A stretch of DNA of 64,000 nucleotides from a virus (IMGVR_UViG_3300008262_000022), one strand, 5' to 3'. Positions 12,279 through 58,962 are shown, numbered from the stretch's first letter. Translations and numbers: made by a program. The notes: a model not told the origin generated them from the sequence alone.

Positions 12279-13169
12279 ATGAAGATATTTTCTAAAAATT
12301 CAATAGCTCAAGAACGATTTGATTTTCATATAGATGTCAATTGTGAAAAATATAAGAATAAACCTATCTCTATCTTCTGTGATTGGCCAGCTTCATTAGC
12401 AGAATTAAGTGAAAATCCAATTAATATTATTATACTAAACGAACCCAATGAACTCTTTGGATTAGTTGATTGGACTATATTTAATCAAAATCATTTTGCT
12501 GTTATATTGTCTCAATGGGATAAAATTCATCAAAATTGTCCAAATTCATTAGTATTTGTTCATGGTGAAACTAATCTAGATAGAGAATATATCGAGAGTT
12601 ATAAGATTAATCCTGAACGAAAATATGAGGTAACTTTTTTAAGTGGGGTGTTAGAGATACTTCCTGGTCATAAATTAAGGCAAAGAGTATTATATAATGA
12701 ACCTAACATTAAAATTCCTCATAAATTTTGGAAAGTTCTAGATGATTTTGATCCTAGAGGACAACGCCCTGGATATTTTGAAGTAAAAATGACTAAATGG
12801 GGTAATCCTATTGAAGGTGAAGGAAAGAAACAAGTTTGGGATAGACATGCTATGTTTCATGTAGCTATAGAAAGTAAAAAAGAAATTAATTATTTCGCTG
12901 ATAAAATACTAGATTGTTTTGCAACTAAAACATTACCTATATATTTTGGAGCACCTAATATTTCTGATTTTGGGTATGATGAAAACGGGATTATTAGGTT
13001 TAGTGATGAAAATGAATTAGTAAATATACTAAATAACTTAACTCCGGATGATTATTATAGTCGATTAGAAGCAATAAATAATAACTATGAAGCTGTCCAA
13101 AAATATGGTTTCTTTTTTTCTAGAGTAGAAGCATTTTTAGATGAACTAATTAAAATAAATAATCTATGA
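12279..13169 (+). CDS. putative alpha-1,3-fucosyltransferase-like (GT10) protein
   Basis: FHVAIESKKEINYFADKILDCFATKTLPIYFG resembles FucT motif FxxAFENS..Y.TEK..PVV.G. Confidence 0.35.
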   Translation: MKIFSKNSIAQERFDFHIDVNCEKYKNKPISIFCDWPASLAELSENPINIIILNEPNELFGLVDWTIFNQNHFAVILSQWDKIHQNCPNSLVFVHGETNLDREYIESYKINPERKYEVTFLSGVLEILPGHKLRQRVLYNEPNIKIPHKFWKVLDDFDPRGQRPGYFEVKMTKWGNPIEGEGKKQVWDRHAMFHVAIESKKEINYFADKILDCFATKTLPIYFGAPNISDFGYDENGIIRFSDENELVNILNNLTPDDYYSRLEAINNNYEAVQKYGFFFSRVEAFLDELIKINNL

Positions 13170-21004: not shown

Positions 21005-21292
21005 ATGCAAGTAGGAAGTTTAGTTGAATGTATTAATGATTCATTTATACCAAAACAAATTGAATTAATACCTAATAGACCAAAACGAGGTAAAATATAC
21101 ACTATTAGACAAATAAAACAATATCCAAATAAATCAGTTGGTTTGTTATTAGAAGAAATAATAAATGAGCCTTTAATGTTACCTAATTTAGACGGATTAT
21201 TTGAACCTACATTTAATATTGAGAGATTCAGAGAATTACCTGAAGCTAATATAGAAGAATTAATTGAAGAATTAGAGTTAACTAATGACTAG
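21005..21292 (+). CDS. hypothetical protein
   Basis: ORF track. Confidence 0.45.
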   Translation: MQVGSLVECINDSFIPKQIELIPNRPKRGKIYTIRQIKQYPNKSVGLLLEEIINEPLMLPNLDGLFEPTFNIERFRELPEANIEELIEELELTND

Positions 21293-21953
21293 AATAGTTT
21301 TCATAAGCGATACACATAACCACCATAATGAAATTAAATTACCCGAAGGTGATATATTAGTTCATGCAGGGGACTTCAGTGGTAGAGGACTACCTGAAGA
21401 AGTGGGTCCATTTTTTGATTGGTTAGAAGAACAAGCTCAGGTATTCAAACATGTTATCTTTATAGCAGGTAATCATGATATGTCGTTTGAGTACAAACAT
21501 CCATGGATTGTAAATTGGTTAAGTAAATTACCAACTAATATTCATTACTTGGAAGATAGTGAGGCAATTATTGATAGTATAAAATTTTATGGTTCACCAT
21601 GGCAACCTGAATTTCATAATTGGGGATTTAACTTACCTAGAGGTAAAGCATTGGCTAAAAAATGGGAAATGATACCTATAGATACTGATGTATTAATTAC
21701 TCATACTCCTCCTCAAAACATATTAGACTATACAATTAGGGATATGATTAATGTGGGATGTGCTGATCTATATTTAAAAGTAAATCAAATTAAACCAAAA
21801 ATCCATGTATTTGGTCATATTCATGAAGGATACGGATATAAGGATATAAATGATACTCTATATCTCAATGCTAGTACGTGTAATTTAAGATACCAACCTG
21901 TTAATTCTCCAATAGTTGTTGATTTTTCTAAAGAAAATGTAGAATTTGTGTAG
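21285..21953 (+). CDS. metallophosphoesterase (calcineurin-like)
   Basis: ISDTHNHH, GDFSGRG, GNHD motifs. Confidence 0.7.
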   Translation: MTRIVFISDTHNHHNEIKLPEGDILVHAGDFSGRGLPEEVGPFFDWLEEQAQVFKHVIFIAGNHDMSFEYKHPWIVNWLSKLPTNIHYLEDSEAIIDSIKFYGSPWQPEFHNWGFNLPRGKALAKKWEMIPIDTDVLITHTPPQNILDYTIRDMINVGCADLYLKVNQIKPKIHVFGHIHEGYGYKDINDTLYLNASTCNLRYQPVNSPIVVDFSKENVEFV

Positions 21954-23210: not shown

Positions 23211-23411
23211 ATGAAATATTTTGAAATATTTGGTCTAGGAGAATTTACAGGCCATGATCTAAAAAAAGCAAGTGAGATTTTAAAGAAAGAATTCCCAAAC
23301 GGCCCACGTATTCAACATACAGAAAGGTTACCGGGTAAATTTTCATTTAATGAAATTGCTAATCACATTCGTAATTCACATCAAGAAGTAAGTAAATCGC
23401 TACATGCATGA
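23211..23411 (+). CDS. hypothetical protein
   Basis: ATG after terminator and AAAGTTATG context; the track ORF begins at 23121. Confidence 0.4.
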   Translation: MKYFEIFGLGEFTGHDLKKASEILKKEFPNGPRIQHTERLPGKFSFNEIANHIRNSHQEVSKSLHA

Positions 23412-23869
23412 AAGTATTATTCTTAGATAATGATGGTGTAATCTGTTTATCTCATAATTGGGGTACACGTCATAAAAAGTTACAAAAATGGATGGCTAAA
23501 AATGGTAAGAAAGCATCTTACGATATGGACCATCGTTTTGATAACTTTGACACTAAAGCCATCCAAGTGCTTAATGAAATATTAACCGAAACCGGTGCGG
23601 ATTATGTTATTAGTTCGGATTGGAAACTACATGCCACACTTGAAGAGTTACAAGGATATTATTTACTTAAAGGTGTTATTAAAGCTCCTATAGCATTAAC
23701 TCCCAACCTAAAAGACTTTGATAAAGATGCGGCTGCGATGTATAGGCACAGATGGGAATTTGAACGTATGCGCTGTTTGGAAATCAAAGAATGGCTAAGA
23801 CAAAACCCAGATGTTACTCATTGGGTAGCAGTAGATGATTTGAATATGTCTAACGGTAGCAGTAGATGA
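23408..23869 (+). pseudogene. HAD-like hydrolase gene disrupted by a 31-bp tandem duplication
   Basis: FLDNDGVI (DxDG) HAD-like N-terminus; the duplication at 23825-23886 is not a multiple of three and gives a stop at 23869; removing one copy extends the frame to a TGA that overlaps the ATG at 23987. Confidence 0.5.
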
Positions 23870-29568: not shown

Positions 29569-30081
29569 ATGATTTCAATTTATATATTATTAGAAAATGA
29601 AACACCTGTTTATTTAGGTAAAACCAATGAACCAAACAGACGATTAAGAGAGCATCGAATGAATTTTAGTAAAGATATTTGTCTTGAAGTTATAGATGAA
29701 GTAGAAGAAAATGAATGGATGTTTTGGGAACAATGGTGGATTGGATTATTTCATAATTGGGGAATAAAATTATTAAATGGAAATAAAGGTGGAGGGGGTC
29801 CTGAGTATCAAAAAGAGTCATCTAAAAAACTAATAGGGGATAAACAGAGAGGAATCAAAAAACCAACAGTTAGTAATAAACTTAAAGGGCAAAAAATAAC
29901 TTGGGATTTAGGAACTAGTACCGCTGTTTTACAATTTGATAAACAAGGAAATTTTATAGCAGAATACAAATCAATGGGTGAAGCATATTCTAAAACAGGA
30001 GTCCCAAGCTCAGCTATATGTGAGGTGTGTAAAGGAAGAAGAAAATCAGCTCATAAATTTATTTGGAAATACAAAGAATAA
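29569..30081 (+). CDS. GIY-YIG homing endonuclease-like
   Basis: SIYILLE..VYLGKT..RRLREH N-terminal GIY-YIG pattern. Confidence 0.5.
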   Translation: MISIYILLENETPVYLGKTNEPNRRLREHRMNFSKDICLEVIDEVEENEWMFWEQWWIGLFHNWGIKLLNGNKGGGGPEYQKESSKKLIGDKQRGIKKPTVSNKLKGQKITWDLGTSTAVLQFDKQGNFIAEYKSMGEAYSKTGVPSSAICEVCKGRRKSAHKFIWKYKE

Positions 30082-33232: not shown

Positions 33233-33405
33233 AGTCAGGTGGCGGAAAGATATTAGTAGTGGCGAGCGAACATATCGTGGTAGACGCATGTTTGTAGGTT
33301 ACGTGTCATGAGTTGAAAGCAACCTTAAGGTGGAGTTAATAACCACATACCTGAATTGACAGGAAATTAAATAATGACATACAGGTTCGAATCCTGTCCT
33401 GACTA
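33233..33405 (+). tRNA. tRNA-like element A (shared acceptor/T arm; D-loop and core carry insertions; non-canonical)
   Basis: 5' AGTCAGGTGGCGG.. and 3' ..ACAGGTTCGAATCCTGTCCTGACTA give a 7-bp acceptor and T arm; 173 nt, no canonical anticodon arm. Confidence 0.4.
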
Positions 33406-33644: not shown

Positions 33645-33744
33645 AGTCAGGTGGCGGAATGGTAGACGCTAGCTTAGATGGAAAGAAAGGTGAAAATGTA
33701 ATCTTAAAGCAACCATCATACAGGTTCGAATCCTGTCCTGACTA
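33645..33744 (+). tRNA. tRNA-like element B
   Basis: AGTCAGG-TG-GCG-GAATGGTAGA-CGC .. ACAGG-TTCGAAT-CCTGT-CCTGACT-A; D arm resembles type-II tRNA-Leu; internal 50 nt forms a GATGG/CCATC long hairpin rather than a 5-7-5 anticodon arm. Confidence 0.45.
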
Positions 33745-35235: not shown

Positions 35236-36321
35236 ATGCAGTTAAATACATTATATAAAAGAGCAGTAAACGGTAAAATTAATGAGTGGACCGTTGAAGT
35301 AAATGGTGCTTGTTTTAGAACAATATCAGGTTATACTGATGGTATTAAAACAACAAGCGAATGGACATGTTGTGAACCTAAAAATCAAGGTAAGAAAAAC
35401 GCTACAACAGCCGAAGAACAAGCATTAGCAGAGGCTACAGCTATGCATCGCAAACGTATTGAGTTAGGATCATTTGAAAACATTAATGATATAGACACAC
35501 CAGTTTATTTCAAACCAATGTTAGCTCATGACTATAATGATTACAAAGATAAAATCAAATTACCTGTAGCAATACAACCTAAATTAGATGGTGTACGTTG
35601 TATTGTTAGAGCAGACGGAATGTGGTCACGTAATGGTAAACCCATCATTTCAGCACCTCACATATTCGAAGCATTAACTCCATTATTTGAAACTAATCCT
35701 GATTTGATATTGGATGGTGAGTTATATTGTGATAAAACAACAGCTGGATTTAATACAATTATATCTTGTGTTCGTAAAACAAAACCAACTGAAGCTGATT
35801 TATCATTAAGTAAACAATTCATTCAATACCATATCTACGATGTTCCTAGTGTTGAGGATAATTTCATGGAACGAATAGCTAGTATTAATGGATTAGCATT
35901 ACCTGAATGCTGTAAAGTAGTACATACACATTGGGTTAGAGAACAATCACATGTCGATTATTTATATGGTTTATTTACAGAACAAGGCTATGAGGGACAA
36001 ATGATTAGATTAAATGCTCCATACGAAAATAAGCGCTCTAAATCGCTTTTAAAACGTAAAGAATTCGTTGATGCTGAGTTTACTATATTGGGTGTTGAGG
36101 AAGGTATTGGTAATTTATCAGGTAAAGTTGGTCGTCTTAATTTTGAAATAAACGGTAAACCATTTAATGCTGCTGTAAACGGAGATTGGGAATATATTGA
36201 ACGTCTATGGAAGAGTAGAGAAGGATTAGTAGGTAAAACAGCTACAGTCAAGTACTTCGAATTAACAGAGGATCAAATTCCCCGCTTTCCTAAAGTAATA
36301 GCAATTCGTGATTTTGAATAA
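35236..36321 (+). CDS. ATP-dependent DNA ligase
   Basis: motif I QPKLDGVRC (KxDG) and OB-domain-like C-terminus. Confidence 0.75.
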   Translation: MQLNTLYKRAVNGKINEWTVEVNGACFRTISGYTDGIKTTSEWTCCEPKNQGKKNATTAEEQALAEATAMHRKRIELGSFENINDIDTPVYFKPMLAHDYNDYKDKIKLPVAIQPKLDGVRCIVRADGMWSRNGKPIISAPHIFEALTPLFETNPDLILDGELYCDKTTAGFNTIISCVRKTKPTEADLSLSKQFIQYHIYDVPSVEDNFMERIASINGLALPECCKVVHTHWVREQSHVDYLYGLFTEQGYEGQMIRLNAPYENKRSKSLLKRKEFVDAEFTILGVEEGIGNLSGKVGRLNFEINGKPFNAAVNGDWEYIERLWKSREGLVGKTATVKYFELTEDQIPRFPKVIAIRDFE

Positions 36322-36365: not shown

Positions 36366-37178
36366 ATGAAAATAAAGTTAGATAAACATAAAATATTCTT
36401 TACATCAGATACTCACTATGGACATACAAATATTTGTCGTGGTATAAGTAATTGGAGAGATGAAAGTGGTAATGTACCTGTAAATCAAACTCGTGATTTT
36501 GATACACTAGAACAGATGAATGATAAGATTGTTGAGTCGATCAACAGTGTTGTAGGTGAGGATGATATCTTATTTCACTTAGGTGATTGGTCATTTGGTG
36601 GGATGGATAATATAGTCAAATTTAGGCGTAAGATTAAATGTAAAAACATCCACTTAATATTGGGTAATCACGACCATCATATTGAACGTAATAAACAACT
36701 AACCAATTACTATAAAAACCCAGATACATTAGAAATAATGGAAGGTAATATAGATGATAATTTTTATGATGAATATAAATTTGGAGAATATTGGGATAAT
36801 AGGGTATATATTCAAGACCTATTCAGTTCGGTAAATCAATACCTAAGATTATCAGTATCGTTTTACCCAGGTACTACCTTATATCAAGGCGAACATGAGT
36901 TTGTACTAATGCATTACCCAATTGCAAGTTGGCATAATATGAATGATGGTGTTATACATTTGCATGGACACGTTCACTTACCTCCAGATAAAAAACTATC
37001 ACAAGGTAAAGCAATGGATGTGGGTGTAGATGGAAACAACTTAATGCCTTATACACTTGGCCAAATTGTAAACATAATGCATAAACAACCTATCGCTAAA
37101 TTATCTTTACCTCAAGACCACCACGAGGAAAAGTTAAGTGGTAATGGTGGTAATAAAAAGGGTGGTTCAAAATTTTAA
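36366..37178 (+). CDS. metallophosphoesterase (calcineurin-like)
   Basis: SDTHYGH, GDWSFGG, GNHDHH, GH.H motifs. Confidence 0.7.
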   Translation: MKIKLDKHKIFFTSDTHYGHTNICRGISNWRDESGNVPVNQTRDFDTLEQMNDKIVESINSVVGEDDILFHLGDWSFGGMDNIVKFRRKIKCKNIHLILGNHDHHIERNKQLTNYYKNPDTLEIMEGNIDDNFYDEYKFGEYWDNRVYIQDLFSSVNQYLRLSVSFYPGTTLYQGEHEFVLMHYPIASWHNMNDGVIHLHGHVHLPPDKKLSQGKAMDVGVDGNNLMPYTLGQIVNIMHKQPIAKLSLPQDHHEEKLSGNGGNKKGGSKF

Positions 37179-37553: not shown

Positions 37554-37805
37554 ATGGCTAAGTTCACAGACGAAAACGGCAGATTCAAGTCCAACTACGA
37601 GCCCGGACAGGTCGGATACCTGGTTGAGATCATGGAGTGGGTTTACCTGCACAATAACATGACCTATGACGAGAAGTTGGATTACCTGCTAAAGCTTGAA
37701 GAGGCACATGAGAACCATTTAAAAGAAGTATTTCCAGCTGGAAATTATCGTTGGGATAATAGGTGGAGTGATAAATTAATTAAATCAAAAGATAAAGATG
37801 AATAA
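37554..37805 (+). CDS. hypothetical protein (5' two-thirds much GC-richer than the genome)
   Basis: ORF track; compositional outlier. Confidence 0.45.
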   Translation: MAKFTDENGRFKSNYEPGQVGYLVEIMEWVYLHNNMTYDEKLDYLLKLEEAHENHLKEVFPAGNYRWDNRWSDKLIKSKDKDE

Positions 37806-38193
37806 AGAATTTATATCATACGAACAAGCATTAGCTTTAAAAGAATTAGGATTTGATGAACCTTGTTTGGCGCATTGGTATAATGAAACACCAACAAACC
37901 CAGAAGGTCAGTGTCTTGTTTATTATAAAAAGCCTTGGGATAATCAAAAGATTATAAACGGAGTTATCAGAGATTATTATTTTGCACCAACCTACTCCCA
38001 AGCATTTAGATGGTTTAGAGAGAAACATAATATGTTTGTTGAAATAACATATGAAAACAATTTACATGATTATATGATAATATCTGATATTTTTACTGAA
38101 GAGGTGGATTTTGGTGATGGTCCATTTGAAACATATGAAGAAATGGAGCTATGGTGTCTTAAAAAATTAATTGAAATAGTAAAAAATAAATAA
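37798..38193 (+). CDS. hypothetical protein (paralog of 39274)
   Basis: YEQALALKELGFDEPCLAHWY vs FEQAKWLKEKGFDEICLGHY. Confidence 0.45.
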   Translation: MNKEFISYEQALALKELGFDEPCLAHWYNETPTNPEGQCLVYYKKPWDNQKIINGVIRDYYFAPTYSQAFRWFREKHNMFVEITYENNLHDYMIISDIFTEEVDFGDGPFETYEEMELWCLKKLIEIVKNK

Positions 38194-38836: not shown

Positions 38837-39217
38837 ATGAAAGAACTCATAATTCTTCGTGGCCTCCCAGGCAGCGGAAAGTCAACATTCGCAAAACTAA
38901 TCTGTAACCAACATGTTGAAGCAGATATGTACTTCATGCAAGATGGAGAATATAAATTTGATGCTACTAAATTAAAACAAGCTCATGAATGGTGTAGAAA
39001 CAAAACTGAGGCTTGGATGCAAAAACGATATAATGTAGTTGTATCAAACACCTTCACTATGGAGTGGGAAATGGATGCTTACTATGAGTTAGCCAAACAA
39101 TACGGTTATCGAGTACACTCCATTATAGTTGAGAATAGACATGGTGGAGTGAATGAACATGGTGTACCTAAAGATAAGTTAGAACAAATGAAAAATAGAT
39201 TTGAAATCAAACTTTAA
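38837..39217 (+). CDS. P-loop kinase (AAA_33/polynucleotide-kinase-like)
   Basis: ILRGLPGSGKSTFAKL Walker A in a 126-aa protein. Confidence 0.55.
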   Translation: MKELIILRGLPGSGKSTFAKLICNQHVEADMYFMQDGEYKFDATKLKQAHEWCRNKTEAWMQKRYNVVVSNTFTMEWEMDAYYELAKQYGYRVHSIIVENRHGGVNEHGVPKDKLEQMKNRFEIKL

Positions 39218-39220
39218 TGT

Positions 39221-39273
39221 TTGGCTTGTCAAAGTAAAGATATTATATTTACAATGTAATAATAATAAAGGTT
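39221..39273 (+). promoter_or_regulatory. candidate promoter
   Basis: TTGGCTTGTCAAAGTAAAGATATTATATTTACA..AAAGGTTATG; a 20-nt core recurs at 47158. Confidence 0.45.
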
Positions 39274-39735
39274 ATGCAAGAAATTAAACCAACATACGTA
39301 ACATTTGAGCAGGCTAAATGGCTTAAAGAGAAAGGATTTGATGAAATTTGTTTAGGACATTATTCGTCAGATGGAGAATTACAAACATTGCAAGATTATT
39401 TAAGTCTTGGAGCAGATGTAGAAGAAATGATTAACAAGCCATTTAATGGTATTTCTTATATGAAAACTATGTGTAAAGCACCTGAACAATGGCAAGTAAT
39501 TGAATGGTTAAGGGTTAATCATGGTATTTGGGTTTATCCTCTTCCAATAGATGATGAAATGAAATTATGGCAATGTAGAATTATTAAAGGTCAACCTTTT
39601 AGTAATTTAAAAAATACATTAAAAATAATTAGTCATGGTGAAATTTCTTATAGAGGATTATATTCACCACAAGAAGCTTACTCAGCAGCATTTGATTACG
39701 TTTTAAACAATAATTTAATATGCAAAAATTATTAA
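39274..39735 (+). CDS. hypothetical protein (paralog of 37798)
   Basis: shared N-terminal motif. Confidence 0.45.
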   Translation: MQEIKPTYVTFEQAKWLKEKGFDEICLGHYSSDGELQTLQDYLSLGADVEEMINKPFNGISYMKTMCKAPEQWQVIEWLRVNHGIWVYPLPIDDEMKLWQCRIIKGQPFSNLKNTLKIISHGEISYRGLYSPQEAYSAAFDYVLNNNLICKNY

Positions 39736-39856
39736 ATAGTATTATATTCATATGTGTTATTACATTAATAGCAAACGTAGTACCAGAATCATTTATATTA
39801 AGTATTGGATTCTGGGGAGGTTGGGCATATTGTAAATTACAAGAGAAAGGATATGT

Positions 39857-40438
39857 ATGGTAAATAATTTTAGACAAATAGTACAACTTTTAAAATTTGA
39901 TAATGAAGATGATTTCTACCACTTACAAATTCTAAAACGTAAAAAAGAAAATCCTGAGTTAGGTTCTAACTCCTATGTTATTAGGACTTATTGTATTCGT
40001 TCTAAAGAACATTTAGTAGAGAAAATGGATGAGATTATAAGTTTATGTATGCATCACAATGCAAGAGCATATATTAATCTTAACCGTAGGTCATTTGAAC
40101 GTGCCGCTTTCCACACTCTAAAAAAGATATCAGACATCATTATGAATCGAGACTATAAATCAGTTCGTAATGCGTTTGAATCAGTTTGTGGTGAGTATGG
40201 TTCTGGTAAAGACAAATATTGGATCATTGATATTGACCCAGAACATTTTGAATTGGCACCTACACTTAAAATACATTTAACTGACTTAGACCCAGTTGGA
40301 GCTAAAGTACATGCTGAGGTACCTACTAAAAATGGTTATCACATTATTACAACTCCATTTAACAAAGCTGAGTTTAAAAAGTTATATCCTGAAATAGATA
40401 TACATACTAATAACCCAACTATATTATTTTGTAATTAA
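39857..40438 (+). CDS. hypothetical protein
   Basis: ORF track. Confidence 0.45.
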   Translation: MVNNFRQIVQLLKFDNEDDFYHLQILKRKKENPELGSNSYVIRTYCIRSKEHLVEKMDEIISLCMHHNARAYINLNRRSFERAAFHTLKKISDIIMNRDYKSVRNAFESVCGEYGSGKDKYWIIDIDPEHFELAPTLKIHLTDLDPVGAKVHAEVPTKNGYHIITTPFNKAEFKKLYPEIDIHTNNPTILFCN

Positions 40439-40441
40439 GAT

Positions 40442-40729
40442 ATGTTTAGTATATTCAAATTCAATTTATTTAAACCCAACGATTGGAAATTAGTCTGGAA
40501 TGACTATGCAGTATGGAATATATGTGACTCACAAGGTGATTCAATATATGAACGTAAATGTTCCTATGAAATCTACTACTCTCAGTTTAGAGGGGAATTT
40601 AAATTAAAAGCTTCTGGTCACAGAGCAAAAGAACATAACTATTATTTCACAGTAGTTCTTCCAAAATTTATTGAATGCAATAAAATTATTTTAGCTCATC
40701 AAAATAAAGAGGCTACATTTATCGAGTAA
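40442..40729 (+). CDS. hypothetical protein
   Basis: ORF track. Confidence 0.4.
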   Translation: MFSIFKFNLFKPNDWKLVWNDYAVWNICDSQGDSIYERKCSYEIYYSQFRGEFKLKASGHRAKEHNYYFTVVLPKFIECNKIILAHQNKEATFIE

Positions 40730-40740
40730 AAATAAAAAAT

Positions 40741-40830
40741 ATGAAAACACTTAATTTAACACATCCCAATAAGTCGGATGTACAATTCAAAGTATCTCAG
40801 TTTCCGGATGGACAACATTATATTATTTGA
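40741..40830 (+). pseudogene. 29-codon ORF fragment, possibly the N-terminal remnant of a ribose-phosphate pyrophosphokinase-like gene
   Basis: MKTLNLTHPNKSDVQFKVSQFPDGQHYII weakly resembles the Prs N-terminus (..RFSDGE..); followed by about 400 bp without convincing coding. Confidence 0.2.
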
Positions 40831-41185
40831 CCATTTTGACCAAGCAATCCAGAAACTATTTGGGTTGTTGAAATAAAAAAATTGGCTAAACATTGAACCG
40901 TTGTGGAGGTTGAGCTGAAATTGCTTTTATGAAAACTAATAATTTCATTAACCACATAAAGATATTACCAGTAATGGTAAACGTATTGTTCCTAATTGAG
41001 CACGGGAAGACTGAACAGACGCTAAGAATGAATAAAACTTCCACTACAATAAAAGTAGAACGGAAAAGTTTAACAGTACAGACAATACGAATGAGCGCTC
41101 AGCTAGACCCTACTCTTATGAAAGACTGGCTTCAAGCGGTAAGTAGAAATACGTCCTGTGGAGTATAAGACAAGAGGGTGCTAAA

Positions 41186-41238
41186 TTGTTTGGTATCTCA
41201 AAATAAAGATGTTATATTTACTAAGTAAGAAATAAGAT
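41186..41238 (+). promoter_or_regulatory. candidate promoter
   Basis: TTGTTTGGTATCTCAAAATAAAGATGTTATATTTACT. Confidence 0.4.
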
Positions 41239-42369
41239 ATGGAAAATTTAAATAGCGTTTGCTACGTAGCAAAAATTGATGAAATTAAAGCAATTGAAGG
41301 AGCCGATAACATTGTACAAGGTGTTATCGGTGGGTGGAATTGCATTATTAAGAAAGGTGAACATACTGCAGGTGAATTAGTTGTAGTAGCAACTACTGAT
41401 GCTGTTATCCCTCAAGACTTATCAGATAAAATGGGAGTTACTAACTACCTAAGAAAAGGAGGTAGAGTAAGAACTGTTAAATTAAGAGGTGTATATTCAG
41501 AATGTTTAATCATCCCAACTAAATACATTCCAGGATATGGAGACATGTATAAAGAAGGAGATGACATGATGGAAAAATTTGGTATCTTCAAATATGAACC
41601 ACCAGCAGTACAAGTACAATTAGCTTCAGGTCGTAAAATTAAGTACCATCAAAATCCAAACTTTGGAGTGTACTATAAATTCCCTAACATTAAAAATGTT
41701 AAAGGTATATTTACTGAGGAGGATGAAGTTCAAATCACTCGTAAGTTACATGGTACAAATGCTCGTTACGGTATTGTAAAGAAAACTAAATTATCGTTTT
41801 GGGATAAGGTTAAGAAGTTCTTTGGTTTTGCGGATGAATGGATTGAGTATGAGTATGTTTATGGTTCACATAATGTAGAAAAAGGCAGTGACTCACAAGG
41901 TTTCTATGATACAGATGTTTGGAGAACAATAGCTGATAAATATTTTATTCAAGATAGATTATGGTCGTATGTTAAAACATATGGTCCAGAGATTATTGGA
42001 AATGGAGTTATATTGTATGGTGAGATTTATGGTCCTGGTATTCAAAAGAACTATGATTACGGTTTAAAAGAAATTGAATTTGCAGGATTTGATATTGTGG
42101 AAAACGGAAAGTACTTAAATACATATTTAGCTGGGTATATGATTGAAGATATGCTTAACTTACCTCACGCACCTGAATTATATAACGGTTTATGGTCTCA
42201 AGAAATTCAAGACCGTTATACATTCAATAATAATATTGAGGGAACTAAAGTACCACATGAAGGTATTGTTATTAAACATGTAAGTGGTGATCGTCATAAA
42301 GTGGCAAAGTGTATAAACCCGCAGTATTTAATCTATAGTGAACATAATGACGTTGGTGATAGCCATTAA
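41239..42369 (+). CDS. RNA ligase (Rnl2/Rnl5 DraRnl-like nucleotidyltransferase)
   Basis: KLHGTN (KxHGxN motif I); N-terminal VAKIDEIKAIEGADNIVQGVIGGWNCIIKKGE domain as in DraRnl-type ligases. Confidence 0.55.
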   Translation: MENLNSVCYVAKIDEIKAIEGADNIVQGVIGGWNCIIKKGEHTAGELVVVATTDAVIPQDLSDKMGVTNYLRKGGRVRTVKLRGVYSECLIIPTKYIPGYGDMYKEGDDMMEKFGIFKYEPPAVQVQLASGRKIKYHQNPNFGVYYKFPNIKNVKGIFTEEDEVQITRKLHGTNARYGIVKKTKLSFWDKVKKFFGFADEWIEYEYVYGSHNVEKGSDSQGFYDTDVWRTIADKYFIQDRLWSYVKTYGPEIIGNGVILYGEIYGPGIQKNYDYGLKEIEFAGFDIVENGKYLNTYLAGYMIEDMLNLPHAPELYNGLWSQEIQDRYTFNNNIEGTKVPHEGIVIKHVSGDRHKVAKCINPQYLIYSEHNDVGDSH

Positions 42370-42376
42370 ATAAGAT

Positions 42377-42405
42377 GGAGCCCTAAATGGGCTCCTTTTA
42401 TTTTG
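42377..42405 (+). terminator. rho-independent terminator
   Basis: GGAGCCC-TAAAT-GGGCTCC then TTTTATTTT. Confidence 0.65.
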
Positions 42406-42438: not shown

Positions 42439-43134
42439 ATGATAAATACTAAAAAGACTTGCAATCAATGTAATCTAGAACAATCTCTTGATAATTTTTA
42501 TAAGAAAAAAGGTGGTAAATACGGAGTAATGTCTGTATGTAAGTTATGTTTTAAAAATCGAGTTCAAGAATATCAAACAACAAATAAGGATATAGTTTCG
42601 GAAAGACGAAAACAACGTTACTTAGATAATAAAAGTGAATATTCTGAAAGGAATAAAACTAATTATTTGAAGAACCAAACTGTAAGAAAAGAAAAACAAA
42701 AACAATATAGTGCTCTTAATAAAGAAAAACGAAAAGAGTATAATCAACGTCCTGAAATTAAGAAACGAGATAATGAGTATAGTAAAGCACACTATAAAGC
42801 AACCCCAGAAAAACATTTAGCTAAAAACATAAGATGTTCTATATCTATGAGAATTAAAGAAATTGATTCTAAAAAAGACCAAAAAACATTAGATATAGTT
42901 GGATTAAACAGTTGGACTGAATTTAAAGAATACATTGAAAAACAATTTACTGAAGGGATGAGTTGGAATAATTATGGAAATAAAATTGAAACTGATTGGT
43001 CAATTGATCATATTATTCCTATATCATCTGCTACTACTTTAGATGAAGTGAAGAAATTGAATCACTACACCAATTTAAGACCGTTATGGCATCTTGAAAA
43101 TATTAAAAAGCGAGATAAAATAAAAAACAAATAG
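42439..43134 (+). CDS. HNH endonuclease with N-terminal zinc finger
   Basis: CNQCN..CKLCF and DWSIDHIIPIS..NLRPLWHLENIKK HNH core. Confidence 0.55.
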   Translation: MINTKKTCNQCNLEQSLDNFYKKKGGKYGVMSVCKLCFKNRVQEYQTTNKDIVSERRKQRYLDNKSEYSERNKTNYLKNQTVRKEKQKQYSALNKEKRKEYNQRPEIKKRDNEYSKAHYKATPEKHLAKNIRCSISMRIKEIDSKKDQKTLDIVGLNSWTEFKEYIEKQFTEGMSWNNYGNKIETDWSIDHIIPISSATTLDEVKKLNHYTNLRPLWHLENIKKRDKIKNK

Positions 43135-43156
43135 GGGCTGTCAAAGCCCCTTTTGT
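43134..43156 (+). terminator. rho-independent terminator
   Basis: GGGGCT-GTCAA-AGCCCC then TTTT. Confidence 0.6.
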
Positions 43157-51651: not shown

Positions 51652-51773
51652 AGTCAGGTGGTGGAATTGGTAGACACACCCTTAGTAATGGGGATTCAAC
51701 TCAATGTACAAATGTATGAGAGAAACTATTACCGTAGATATATTGAACACAGGTTCGAATCCTGTCCTGACTA
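51652..51773 (+). tRNA. tRNA-like element C
   Basis: AGTCAGG-TG-GTG-GAATTGGTAGA-CAC .. ACAGG-TTCGAAT-CCTGT-CCTGACT-A; internal CCC/GGG stem with TAGTAAT loop (GUA-like) but position 33 is not U; 122 nt. Confidence 0.4.
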
Positions 51774-52198: not shown

Positions 52199-52296
52199 AG
52201 TCAGGTGGCGTAGATGGTGAAACGCAGAGCGGATGTGGATATCGCTTACTTTGAGACCACATAAAAAGGATACAGGTTCGAATCCTGTCCTGACTA
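52199..52296 (+). tRNA. tRNA-like element E
   Basis: same acceptor and T arm; 98 nt; internal ATGTGG/CCACAT pairing instead of a canonical anticodon arm. Confidence 0.4.
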
Positions 52297-52409: not shown

Positions 52410-52600
52410 AGTCAGGTGGCGAAATTGGTAGACGCTACGAGTGGGTGTTACACTAATACATCCGTAACTAAGGTATGACTCTATGTGGGTGGCTGAACGT
52501 ACTGCAAACGGTGTGATAATTCTGGGCTTGAATCCAGTGTATCCTACTACAAGCCTTTGATTAATGACCACATTTACAGGTTCGAGTCCTGTCCTGACTA
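52410..52600 (+). tRNA. tRNA-like element D (composite, contains an internal degenerate T-arm/3' end)
   Basis: same 5' and 3' ends; internal CTGGGCTTGAATCCAG..TCCTACTACAAG looks like a decayed second 3' half; 191 nt. Confidence 0.35.
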
Positions 52601-58596: not shown

Positions 58597-58705
58597 TAGT
58601 CAGGACAGGATTCGAACCTGCAAACACTCCATCGGGTATTTTAAGACTAAGCCAGAGATAAACTCCTATGCTGGTCTGATTTGGCTACCATTCCGCCACC
58701 TGACT
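58597..58705 (-). tRNA. tRNA-like element F
   Basis: minus strand: AGTCAGGTGGCGGAATGGTAGCC .. GCAGGTTCGAATCCTGTCCTGACTA. Confidence 0.4.
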
Positions 58706-58710
58706 ATTTC

Positions 58711-58845
58711 TTATTTTACTTCTCTTATACGAGAAATATCAGTTTTTAATTTTTTAGCTGCTTTTGTTTTATTCCAAGCTTTAATTGTTTTAGTTGGGTT
58801 ATCTATAGAACGATATTCAATTTTACTTTTTATTAATCTTTTCAT
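58711..58845 (-). CDS. small basic protein (44 aa) between minus-strand tRNA-like elements
   Basis: MKRLIKSKIEYRSIDNPTKTIKAWNKTKAAKKLKTDISRIREVK; the only minus-strand ORF with a plausible context. Confidence 0.3.
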   Translation of the reverse strand: MKRLIKSKIEYRSIDNPTKTIKAWNKTKAAKKLKTDISRIREVK

Positions 58846-58860
58846 AACTTTAAATCTTAG

Positions 58861-58962
58861 TAGTCAGGACAGGACTCGAACCTGTATGAAGAGATTAATT
58901 TTTGTGGTATAAGTTTCTCTTCTAACCAACAATTAGCGTCTAACCAATTCCGCCACCTGACT
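58861..58962 (-). tRNA. tRNA-like element G
   Basis: minus strand: AGTCAGGTGGCGGAATTGGTTAGACGC .. ACAGGTTCGAGTCCTGTCCTGACTA. Confidence 0.4.

Follow-up and report, generated by a model that had tools for sequence, protein, structure and literature searches.

An Rnl5-type RNA ligase linked to a polynucleotide kinase-like protein and a metallophosphoesterase: a candidate RNA-repair kit of an uncultivated large-genome phage

It is accepted that phages counter RNA-cleaving host defences with kits composed of an RNA ligase, a polynucleotide kinase (PNK), and a phosphatase. Metal-independent ribonucleases, such as host or rival ribotoxins, leave a 2',3'-cyclic phosphate or a 3'-phosphate on one side of the cut and a 5'-OH on the other. 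An RNA ligase together with a PNK and a HAD or calcineurin-like phosphatase has been described as the RNA-repair kit of large phages (PMC7824862). Among RNA ligases, Rnl1 and Rnl4 are the clades for stem-loop breaks, and Rnl2 and Rnl5 act on nicks in duplex RNA or RNA:DNA (PMC4408790). The characterised Rnl5 enzymes seal 3'-OH-RNA/5'-PO4 duplex nicks, require RNA as the 3'-OH strand, and are feeble on single strands; phage homologs of Rnl5 are already on record (PMC4408790). The physiological substrates of Rnl5 "are not known" (PMC4408790, PMC5397189), and the sole genetic phenotype on record is that of the DraRnl knockout, which is radiation-sensitive and shows slower genome reassembly (PMC5397189). 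Here, a candidate RNA-repair kit with an Rnl5-type ligase at its centre is described from the viral sequence IMGVR_UViG_3300008262_000022. The whole stretch of 64,000 nucleotides that was analysed is referred to as the window. Four of its genes are proposed to take part in the repair:

41239..42369, + strand: Rnl5-type (DraRnl/NgrRnl-like) ATP-dependent RNA ligase, 376 aa (PF21189, PF09414, phrog_968)
38837..39217, + strand: minimal P-loop kinase of the polynucleotide-kinase clade, 126 aa (AAA_33, phrog_505, and fold); proposed 5'-OH end healer
36366..37178, + strand: binuclear metallophosphoesterase MPE1, 270 aa (Metallophos, phrog_547); proposed 3'-end healer, removing 2',3'-cyclic phosphate or 3'-phosphate
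23408..23869, + strand: HAD_SAK_2 "Swiss-army-knife" RNA-repair phosphatase, 153 aa (PF18143); possible alternative or additional 3'-phosphatase

The ligase consists of a PHA02142 OB-fold domain at residues 10-94 (PF21189, E 1.4e-13) and an RNA_ligase domain at residues 162-358 (PF09414, E 2e-15), and it matches phrog_968, "RNA ligase", in PHROGs (E 2e-57). The closest solved structure is NgrRnl (PDB 5cot). The single sequence aligned residues 10-123 to NgrRnl 10-127 (E 5e-14). A profile built from 10 homologs, including 3 cultured-phage ligases that are about 28-30% identical, extended the match to nearly full length (E 7e-43). This match is split in two: the first part covers the N-terminal domain up to and including motif I (5-175 to NgrRnl 5-177), and the second goes from motif III to NgrRnl residue 337/340 (profile position 364/373). 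The alignment ends near the C-terminus of NgrRnl, indicating that a C-terminal module after the nucleotidyltransferase (NTase) domain is absent. Motif I is K169-L-H-G-T-N. K169 and G172 (motif I), G261-E262 (III), D285 (IIIa), E341-G342 (IV), and K357 (V) are invariant in the 10 sequences and align with the NgrRnl motifs in the profile. The insert between motifs I and III is ~40 residues larger than that of NgrRnl. TIGR02306 (RNA_lig_DRB0094, the DraRnl family), which is also the JGI annotation of close homologs, aligns end to end (residues 10-364 to model positions 5-339/341, E 7e-25). The score of 87.6 bits is under the curated equivalog cutoff of 151.15, which, at the level of sequence, marks a divergent subfamily. 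Because of the OB and NTase architecture, the NgrRnl match, the invariant motifs, and the end-to-end TIGR02306 match, the 41239 protein is assigned as a divergent but intact Rnl5-type ligase with predicted activity.

Other ligase families match poorly or not at all. PF09511 (RNA_lig_T4_1, Rnl1) gave no match at E<=0.01, and there are no Rnl1 chains among the PDB matches of either the single sequence or the profile. T4 Rnl2 matches only around motifs III-IV (residues 254-328, E 5e-6), and the TIGR02307 score of 22.6 bits, against a cutoff of 197, places the protein outside Rnl2. No DNA-ligase or capping-enzyme family, the two alternatives named in an initial annotation made from the sequence alone, was matched. 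The KxHGxN form of motif I presumably resembles that of T4 Rnl2. The initial annotation had considered it characteristic of the Rnl2/Rnl5 clade. The motif is present, but it is not general for Rnl5; NgrRnl has KLDG (PMC4408790), and one phage homolog in the alignment has KLDGS.

The kinase matches PF13671 AAA_33 (E 5e-15), phrog_2071 (4e-42), and phrog_505, "polynucleotide kinase" (4e-13), and its P-loop (Walker A) is GLPGSGKST. It also aligns to phrog_8238 (9e-9), a family of 737 positions that carries the annotation RNA ligase; the match falls in the kinase part at the N-terminus of that family. Its sequence matches to solved structures are weak and consistent, and all of them are kinases of polynucleotide or tRNA substrates: the Mucorales tRNA-splicing 5'-OH kinase (9d8a/9drz), which is a stand-alone enzyme (PMC11571804), PSTK, T4 Pnk, Pnkp1, and the CthPnkp kinase domain. 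An AlphaFold (AF2) model, with a mean confidence (pLDDT) of only 78.6, was compared with known structures by Foldseek. The top match was T4 Pnk (1ly1, E 5.6e-6, TM 0.71), followed by the CthPnkp kinase, PSTK, Pnkp1, and mammalian PNKP; besides 1ly1, the top entries include 4jt2/4gp7, 2ia5, 4xru, and 3u7g. Gluconate, adenosine phosphosulfate (APS), and adenylate kinases rank behind the PNKs. D30, conserved in at least 90% of homologs, aligns to the general base D35 of T4 Pnk. R101 and R121 are invariant, and the residue at the position of T4 R38 is not Arg. Since the modelled fold is closest to T4 Pnk and CthPnkp and the sequence relatives are all polynucleotide or tRNA kinases, the protein probably belongs to the PNK clade, from which its substrate is predicted. 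Apart from this, the first ~110 positions of a PADLOC model, CARF4--CARF_PDDEXK_AAA, align to the kinase (E 6.6e-13); type III CRISPR contexts thus include a CARF/PD-DExK protein that carries a fused PNK-like kinase domain.

MPE1 matches PF00149 Metallophos (E 2.7e-7) and phrog_547 (7e-41). Its motifs DxH, GD, GNHD, H, and GHxH are intact, with D15, H17, D74, N101, H102, H183, H202, and H204 invariant in 12 homologs, and a C-terminal DHH is conserved. The HAD protein matches PF18143 HAD_SAK_2 with E 9.3e-19 and 68.6 bits, against a gathering cutoff of 27.5. This family was defined through its association with RNA repair and is tied to RNA-ligase neighbourhoods (PMC7824862).

The initial annotation had listed these genes as an RNA ligase with a DraRnl-like N-terminal domain at 41239..42369, a minimal P-loop kinase as in polynucleotide kinases, calcineurin-like metallophosphoesterases at 21285 and 36366, and a HAD-like gene at 23408. 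All of these open reading frames (ORFs) are present where it placed them and belong to the superfamilies it named: the ligase by PF09414 and phrog_968, its N-terminal domain by PF21189 and the NgrRnl alignment, the kinase by AAA_33, phrog_505, and Foldseek, the metallophosphoesterases by PF00149, and the HAD-like gene by PF18143. Judged by profile comparison, the E-values are far beyond chance.

To see the genes in their context, 83 loci (numbered below with the prefix L) were taken around ligase homologs of 64-88% identity, and homologs of the window genes were located by tblastn and iterated hidden Markov model (HMM) searches. Flanks of at least 9 kb on each side are available for 39 loci (the full-flank relatives). 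The kinase lies no more than 10 kb from the ligase in 31 of them and MPE1 in 30, with both present in 30; the count for HAD_SAK is 20. Of the 53 loci that have the kinase as well as MPE1, 25 have the two as immediate neighbours. The kinase adjoins the ligase in 10 of 57 loci, and MPE1 is directly downstream of the ligase in several relatives. Three gene orders were observed. The window has MPE1, kinase, and ligase in this order. Some contigs have contiguous kinase, ligase, and MPE1. In the commonest arrangement among more distant relatives, a kinase-MPE1 pair lies 3-8 kb upstream of the ligase. The survival of this proximity through three gene orders, together with kinase-ligase fusions in other phages (phrog_8238), argues for a functional unit of kinase, ligase, and MPE1. 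The RNA-repair toolkit of the initial annotation is upheld by the families and by this proximity despite rearrangement. Similar neighbourhoods are seen in cultured phages: in a mycobacteriophage, the Rnl5-like ligase is preceded at a distance of ~4 kb by a polynucleotide kinase, and tRNAs and a nucleotidyltransferase lie near the ligase of CcrColossus. In L003, a relative with 73% identity, a cREC_REC (PF20274) gene (12727-13161) follows the ligase at a distance of 1.6 kb, and none was seen in the window. This family is proposed to process cyclic-phosphate RNA ends.

The best reading, considered somewhat better than an even bet, is that these genes together specify a "heal-and-seal" RNA repair pathway, carried by the phage and split over separate proteins, because the kinase and MPE1 lie near the ligase in most full-flank relatives, in varying order. 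MPE1 (36366) and/or the HAD_SAK protein (23408) would turn the 3' end of a broken RNA into a 3'-OH. The 38837 kinase would move a phosphate from a nucleoside triphosphate onto the 5'-OH. The 41239 ligase would then adenylylate itself at K169, pass the AMP to the 5'-phosphate, and seal the break. Sealing would occur while the RNA pieces remain base-paired, as in nicked tRNA, rRNA, or other structured RNA; a broken tRNA held by its stems could be the substrate of the ligase. From the gene content we infer the substrate, the order of the steps, and the counter-defence purpose, and the phosphoesterase that would heal the 3' ends is proposed from gene linkage.

Several observations weigh against heal-and-seal RNA repair. 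Rnl5 prefers duplex nicks, and the stem-loop clades are Rnl1 and Rnl4 (PMC4408790). No physiological substrate is on record for Rnl5, and the phenotype of the DraRnl knockout is one of DNA repair (PMC5397189). MPE1 showed no relationship to the lambda-phosphatase-like domain of CthPnkp in the profile search of the PDB; the only match at E<=0.1 was the Aquifex protein aq_1665 (1xm7, 5.6e-13), which is uncharacterised, and the substrate of MPE1 is not readable from homology. All of the relatives come from a single phage clade; the counts are therefore non-independent, and the linkage partly reflects shared ancestry. In the window itself, unrelated small ORFs split the three genes, leaving gaps of 1.7 kb and 2.0 kb. 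ARAGORN found tRNA or tmRNA genes within 10 kb of the ligase in only 13 of the 83 loci.

The window is a piece of an uncultivated large-genome phage, because metagenomic homologs of the ligase protein number in the thousands, their contigs are long, and a near-DNA search of the locus against 50,697 GenBank phage records gave no match. The closest 120 homologs are 73-98% identical; contigs carrying the closest ones reach 178 kb, and at least one is from a freshwater metagenome. The G+C content of the window is ~30%, and its genes are nearly all on the + strand. Functions of large phages include a GroEL-like chaperonin, glycosyltransferases, thymidylate synthase, a gp44-like clamp loader, a PD-(D/E)XK nuclease, and sugar-nucleotide enzymes. 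Scans of roughly 70 window ORFs with Pfam or PHROGs brought up no RlaP, CCA-adding enzyme, 2H, or KptA gene, and no Hen1 was seen in the window. Further features that bear on the kit are as follows:

39857..40438, + strand: archaeo-eukaryotic primase (AEP)-fold, primase/primase-polymerase-like protein, 193 aa; possible accessory nucleotidyltransferase
35236..36321: ATP-dependent DNA ligase, a gene separate from the 41239 RNA ligase
21285..21953, + strand: second metallophosphoesterase MPE2, 222 aa (PF00149 Metallophos, E 2.5e-14)
40876..41207, + strand: hyper-conserved, probably non-coding, structured RNA-like block of ~330 nt, just upstream of the ligase start
40741..40830, + strand: remnant (29 codons) of a phosphoribosyl pyrophosphate (PRPP)-synthetase-like (Pribosyltran) gene
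33233-33405, 33645-33744, 51652-51773, 52199-52296, and 52410-52600, + strand: tRNA-Leu-like elements (motif search)
58597-58705 and 58861-58962, - strand: tRNA-Leu-like elements (motif search)
42377..42395, + strand: terminator-like GC-rich hairpin followed by a T-run, directly 3' of the ligase stop (sequence scan)

MPE2 is probably outside the core of the system, because it is near the ligase in only 14 of the 83 loci. It matches the PADLOC candidate phage-defence model PDC-S10 almost end to end (E 1.7e-85).

The AEP-fold protein belongs to the uncharacterised family phrog_14949, with 1359 metagenomic homologs and no Pfam match. Its fold assignment is confident. The DxD and the motif II His are invariant, as are many basic residues; for the third catalytic acidic residue (motif III), D181 is in the consensus but is less than 90% conserved, and H183 is invariant. 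A structural homolog is present in Campylobacter phage CP21, and all of its viral structural relatives are uncharacterised. Among the full-flank relatives, the AEP-fold gene is near the ligase in 8 and the DNA ligase gene in 4. From the 68 loci fetched through the AEP-fold protein, linkage was counted in 67; the ligase or the kinase lies within 8 kb in only 14 of them, HMM searches included. On this weak linkage, its candidacy as a core component was rejected and it was downgraded to a possible accessory; its membership in the repair system is uncertain.

The RNA-like block shows 98.7-99.4% nucleotide identity to its counterparts in L001 and L176, while the genes beside it show 86-92% nucleotide identity (L001) and 77-95% protein identity (L176). 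L001 and L177 carry hairpin insertions at one same site of the block, with a common stem and different loops. These insertions break the sole ORF, and the ~80 nt downstream remain identical. The 79-aa ORF (40929..41168) was therefore rejected as a gene, since the insertions shift its frame and its end while the downstream DNA is unchanged; it has no Pfam match. The + strand of the block folds better than shuffled sequences (z -3.0). RNAalifold predicted 43 pairs, 9 of them with compensatory changes, from only two lineages. In Rfam, the 500-bp gap upstream of the ligase, the block included, gave no credible match, and IMG/VR contains no exact copy of a 25-mer taken from the block. Only 5 copies are present in 2.5 Mb of related loci. 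It looks like an undescribed structured RNA. A divergent copy is found in L135, ~1 kb downstream of a homolog of the AEP-fold protein. In L176, the block is followed by a NadV/Nampt-like gene that occupies the position of the ligase. Because of this replacement, a specific tie between the block and the ligase is not established. The PRPP-synthetase-like gene is intact next to the ligase in L040, L005, and L031, and the region upstream of the ligase hints at a variable slot for NAD/PRPP metabolism.

ARAGORN found 0 tRNA genes in the window. The Rfam tRNA model found 4 elements and the motif search 7. All seven have the same acceptor stem AGUCAGG/CCUGACU, the discriminator A, the same T arm, and a tRNA-Leu-like covarying D arm. 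The place of the anticodon arm holds a 20-150-nt segment that is different in every element. Two elements carry extra D-loop inserts, one of them, of ~30 nt, in the element at 33233. The two minus-strand elements (58597-58962) lie in an ORF-poor stretch of raised G+C content in a genome otherwise transcribed from the + strand. Related contigs and contigs of metagenome-assembled genomes (MAGs) yielded 51 further unique copies, making 58 in total; in the shortest, the anticodon loop is replaced by, for example, a tetraloop. The seven elements are one non-canonical family, not ordinary tRNAs, and this looks like an undescribed RNA family.

Three explanations for these elements were rejected. Three copies had looked by eye like convincing H-type pseudoknots, but a scripted count found 10 in the 58 copies, against 11.7 expected from shuffles. 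The middles show no likeness to each other, to the window, or to GenBank phages, and their complementarity to the window is not beyond chance, so that an antisense or spacer-like role was dismissed. For mimicry of a host tRNA, a 22-mer of the element was found in 18 contigs of 185,579 species genomes, all of them carrying the same odd element; these are low-GC MAG contigs, and no canonical tRNA has the 22-mer. About half of the MAG contigs with the element are binned as Bacteroidota, which is only a hint at the host.

The elements adjoin the ligase only occasionally, as in L024. Some relatives have many ordinary tRNA genes a few kb from the ligase: a tmRNA and 20 tRNA genes in L004 (5088-9420) and 13 tRNAs in L003 (277-4181). 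The overall count of tRNA or tmRNA genes given above is, however, about that expected by chance for a random 21-kb window in a ~160-kb genome. Association with tRNA genes was therefore rejected as support, and the tRNA-specific reading has no positive support from context. The initial annotation had likened the locus to T4 Pnkp plus Rnl1, which repair tRNAs cut by PrrC, and had seen the abundance of tRNA-like elements as fitting. As for the analogy, the enzyme kit is supported; the Rnl1 type is not, the ligase being Rnl5, and neither is the tRNA context. The abundance argument is weakened by the absence of ARAGORN tRNAs, the non-canonical nature of the seven elements, and the lack of tRNA enrichment near the ligase.

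Heal-and-seal RNA repair competes with other explanations. The genes may tentatively be read as repairing DNA or RNA:DNA hybrids, a minority possibility that deserves weight. In this case, the ligase would seal nicks in phage DNA with ribonucleotides on the 3'-OH side. RNA patches or primers would come from a primase-polymerase, possibly the AEP-fold protein, like a split bacterial LigD (POL + PE + LIG), and the kinase and the phosphoesterase would clean 5'-OH and 3'-phosphate DNA ends left by nucleases. Rnl5 needs RNA on the 3'-OH side only and takes 5'-PO4 DNA, the DraRnl knockout reassembles its irradiated genome late, and kinases of the PNK clade (T4 Pnk, mammalian PNKP) also use DNA, all of which is as DNA repair predicts. 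The AEP-fold gene is situated between those of the kinase and the ligase here, and about 8 relatives have it immediately upstream of the kinase; the structural matches of its product include LigD POL domains. An ATP DNA ligase gene is nearby here and in 10 of the 83 loci, but this also means that the phage has its own DNA ligase. Moreover, the AEP linkage is weak when counted from its own side, HAD_SAK_2, and cREC_REC in L003, are tied to RNA-ligase neighbourhoods (PMC7824862), and no Ku or other end-joining factor was seen. A broader proposal joins the kinase, ligase, and phosphoesterase with the AEP-fold protein and the ~330-nt block into one nucleic-acid-processing module, rather than a generic tRNA-repair kit. 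For instance, the AEP enzyme could synthesise or lengthen a run of ribonucleotides on a dedicated substrate, either RNA or DNA, whose ends would be healed and whose nick would be sealed by the Rnl5 ligase. This is quite unlikely; if true, it would give the first defined natural substrate for the widespread Rnl5 clade.

It is also conceivable, though unlikely, that the genes are neighbours in a conserved early or auxiliary region and form no single pathway. The kinase might, for instance, have nucleotides as its substrates, the phosphoesterases might break down cyclic-nucleotide immune signals or take part in nucleotide metabolism, and the ligase might work alone. The interspersed unrelated ORFs, the 3-8 kb between the kinase-MPE1 pair and the ligase in most more distant relatives, the single phage lineage of all relatives, and the failure of homology to give a substrate for MPE1 agree with such independence, and a role against nucleotide signals has been proposed for the calcineurin-like phosphodiesterases of phages (PMC7824862). 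It does not easily explain why the contiguous kinase-ligase-MPE1 order occurs and closeness is retained in three orders, why kinase-ligase fusions exist in other phages, or why the nearest folds of the kinase are polynucleotide kinases and not nucleoside or nucleoside monophosphate kinases. Maturation of the phage's own structured RNAs, either the tRNA-Leu-like elements or the ~330-nt block, by excision of inserts and rejoining of the halves or by circularisation, appears very improbable. It is suggested by the inserts at the anticodon arm of the seven elements and in the D-loops of two of them, by four tRNA-like elements beginning 9 nt past the ligase stop in L024, and by the block adjoining the ligase gene in the window, L001, and L177. 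Against this, no splicing endonuclease was identified, and even the minimal, insert-free elements are without a normal anticodon loop, so that excision would yield no decoding tRNA. The tRNA-like elements are near the ligase in only 12 of the 83 loci, and it is the NadV-like gene, not the ligase, that follows the block in L176.

A GIY-YIG gene (29569-30081, + strand) near thymidylate synthase and a free-standing HNH/endonuclease VII-like gene (42439-43134, + strand) directly after the ligase are likely homing endonucleases. The latter is bracketed by terminator-like hairpins at 42377-42395 and 43133-43151, and it is missing from the post-ligase position in L001. Two paralogous small proteins of phrog_12005 (37798-38193 and 39274-39735, both + strand) are encoded on either side of the kinase. 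They have a common N-terminal motif ..EQA..LKE.GFDE.., and homologs are near the cassette in 11 of the 83 loci.

Heal-and-seal RNA repair in this locus would extend a known theme to an abundant clade of uncultivated freshwater phages with contigs of about 160-180 kb. The repeated, tight linkage of the ligase to a stand-alone PNK-like kinase and an aq_1665-type metallophosphoesterase provides a compact three-protein system to reconstitute, and it assigns a candidate function to this uncharacterised metallophosphoesterase subfamily. It is in the AEP-fold protein, the RNA-like block, and the tRNA-Leu-like elements that new biology might emerge.

Compared with known systems, the ligase resembles DraRnl of Deinococcus radiodurans and NgrRnl of Naegleria gruberi in having an N-terminal OB domain and NTase motifs I, III, IIIa, IV, and V without a C-terminal domain. 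Unlike NgrRnl, it has KLHGTN instead of KLDG at motif I and a larger insert between motifs I and III, and it falls under the TIGR02306 cutoff of the DraRnl family and shares less than 30% identity with its cultured-phage homologs; the phage ligase is known here from its sequence. Bacterial LigD (POL-PE-LIG) is similar only in its possible working, with an AEP polymerase that adds ribonucleotides, a phosphoesterase that trims 3' ends, and a ligase preferring a 3'-ribonucleotide nick; in the window, an AEP-fold protein, phosphoesterases, and a ligase of a 3'-RNA-dependent clade are encoded side by side. The ligase and phosphoesterase families are different from those of LigD, there is no Ku, the genes are separate, and the AEP gene is weakly linked.

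The Pnkp/Hen1 and Pnkp1-Rnl-Hen1 systems of Clostridium thermocellum and Capnocytophaga likewise combine a kinase, a calcineurin-type metallophosphoesterase, and a ligase, and the phage kinase has Pnkp1 and the kinase domain of CthPnkp among its best structural matches. Those systems have one fused polypeptide accompanied by the Hen1 2'-O-methyltransferase, whereas no Hen1 was seen in the phage; MPE1 is of the aq_1665-like subfamily, and the ligase is Rnl5 in contrast to the Rnl4-like ligase there. T4 Pnkp and Rnl1 share with this locus a phage 5'-kinase, a (here candidate) 3'-phosphatase, and an ATP-dependent RNA ligase, and the fold of the kinase is closest to T4 Pnk. Here, however, the ligase is Rnl5 without PF09511, the kinase and the phosphatase are separate genes, and the candidate phosphatase is a metallophosphoesterase and/or HAD_SAK protein, not the HAD domain of Pnkp. 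The T4 system counters the PrrC anticodon nuclease; a counter-defence of that type here would reverse the cuts of a host anticodon nuclease. The RNA-repair sets of jumbo and large phages (Iyer et al. 2021, PMC7824862) emphasise Rnl1, Rnl2, and RtcB, whereas the ligase here is Rnl5-type. They are similar to this locus in combining an ATP-dependent RNA ligase and a PNK with HAD SAK, calcineurin-like, or cRec phosphoesterases. Those phages carry many tRNAs, and among the relatives of the present phage, 20 tRNAs with a tmRNA, and a cREC_REC gene, are likewise found near the ligase.

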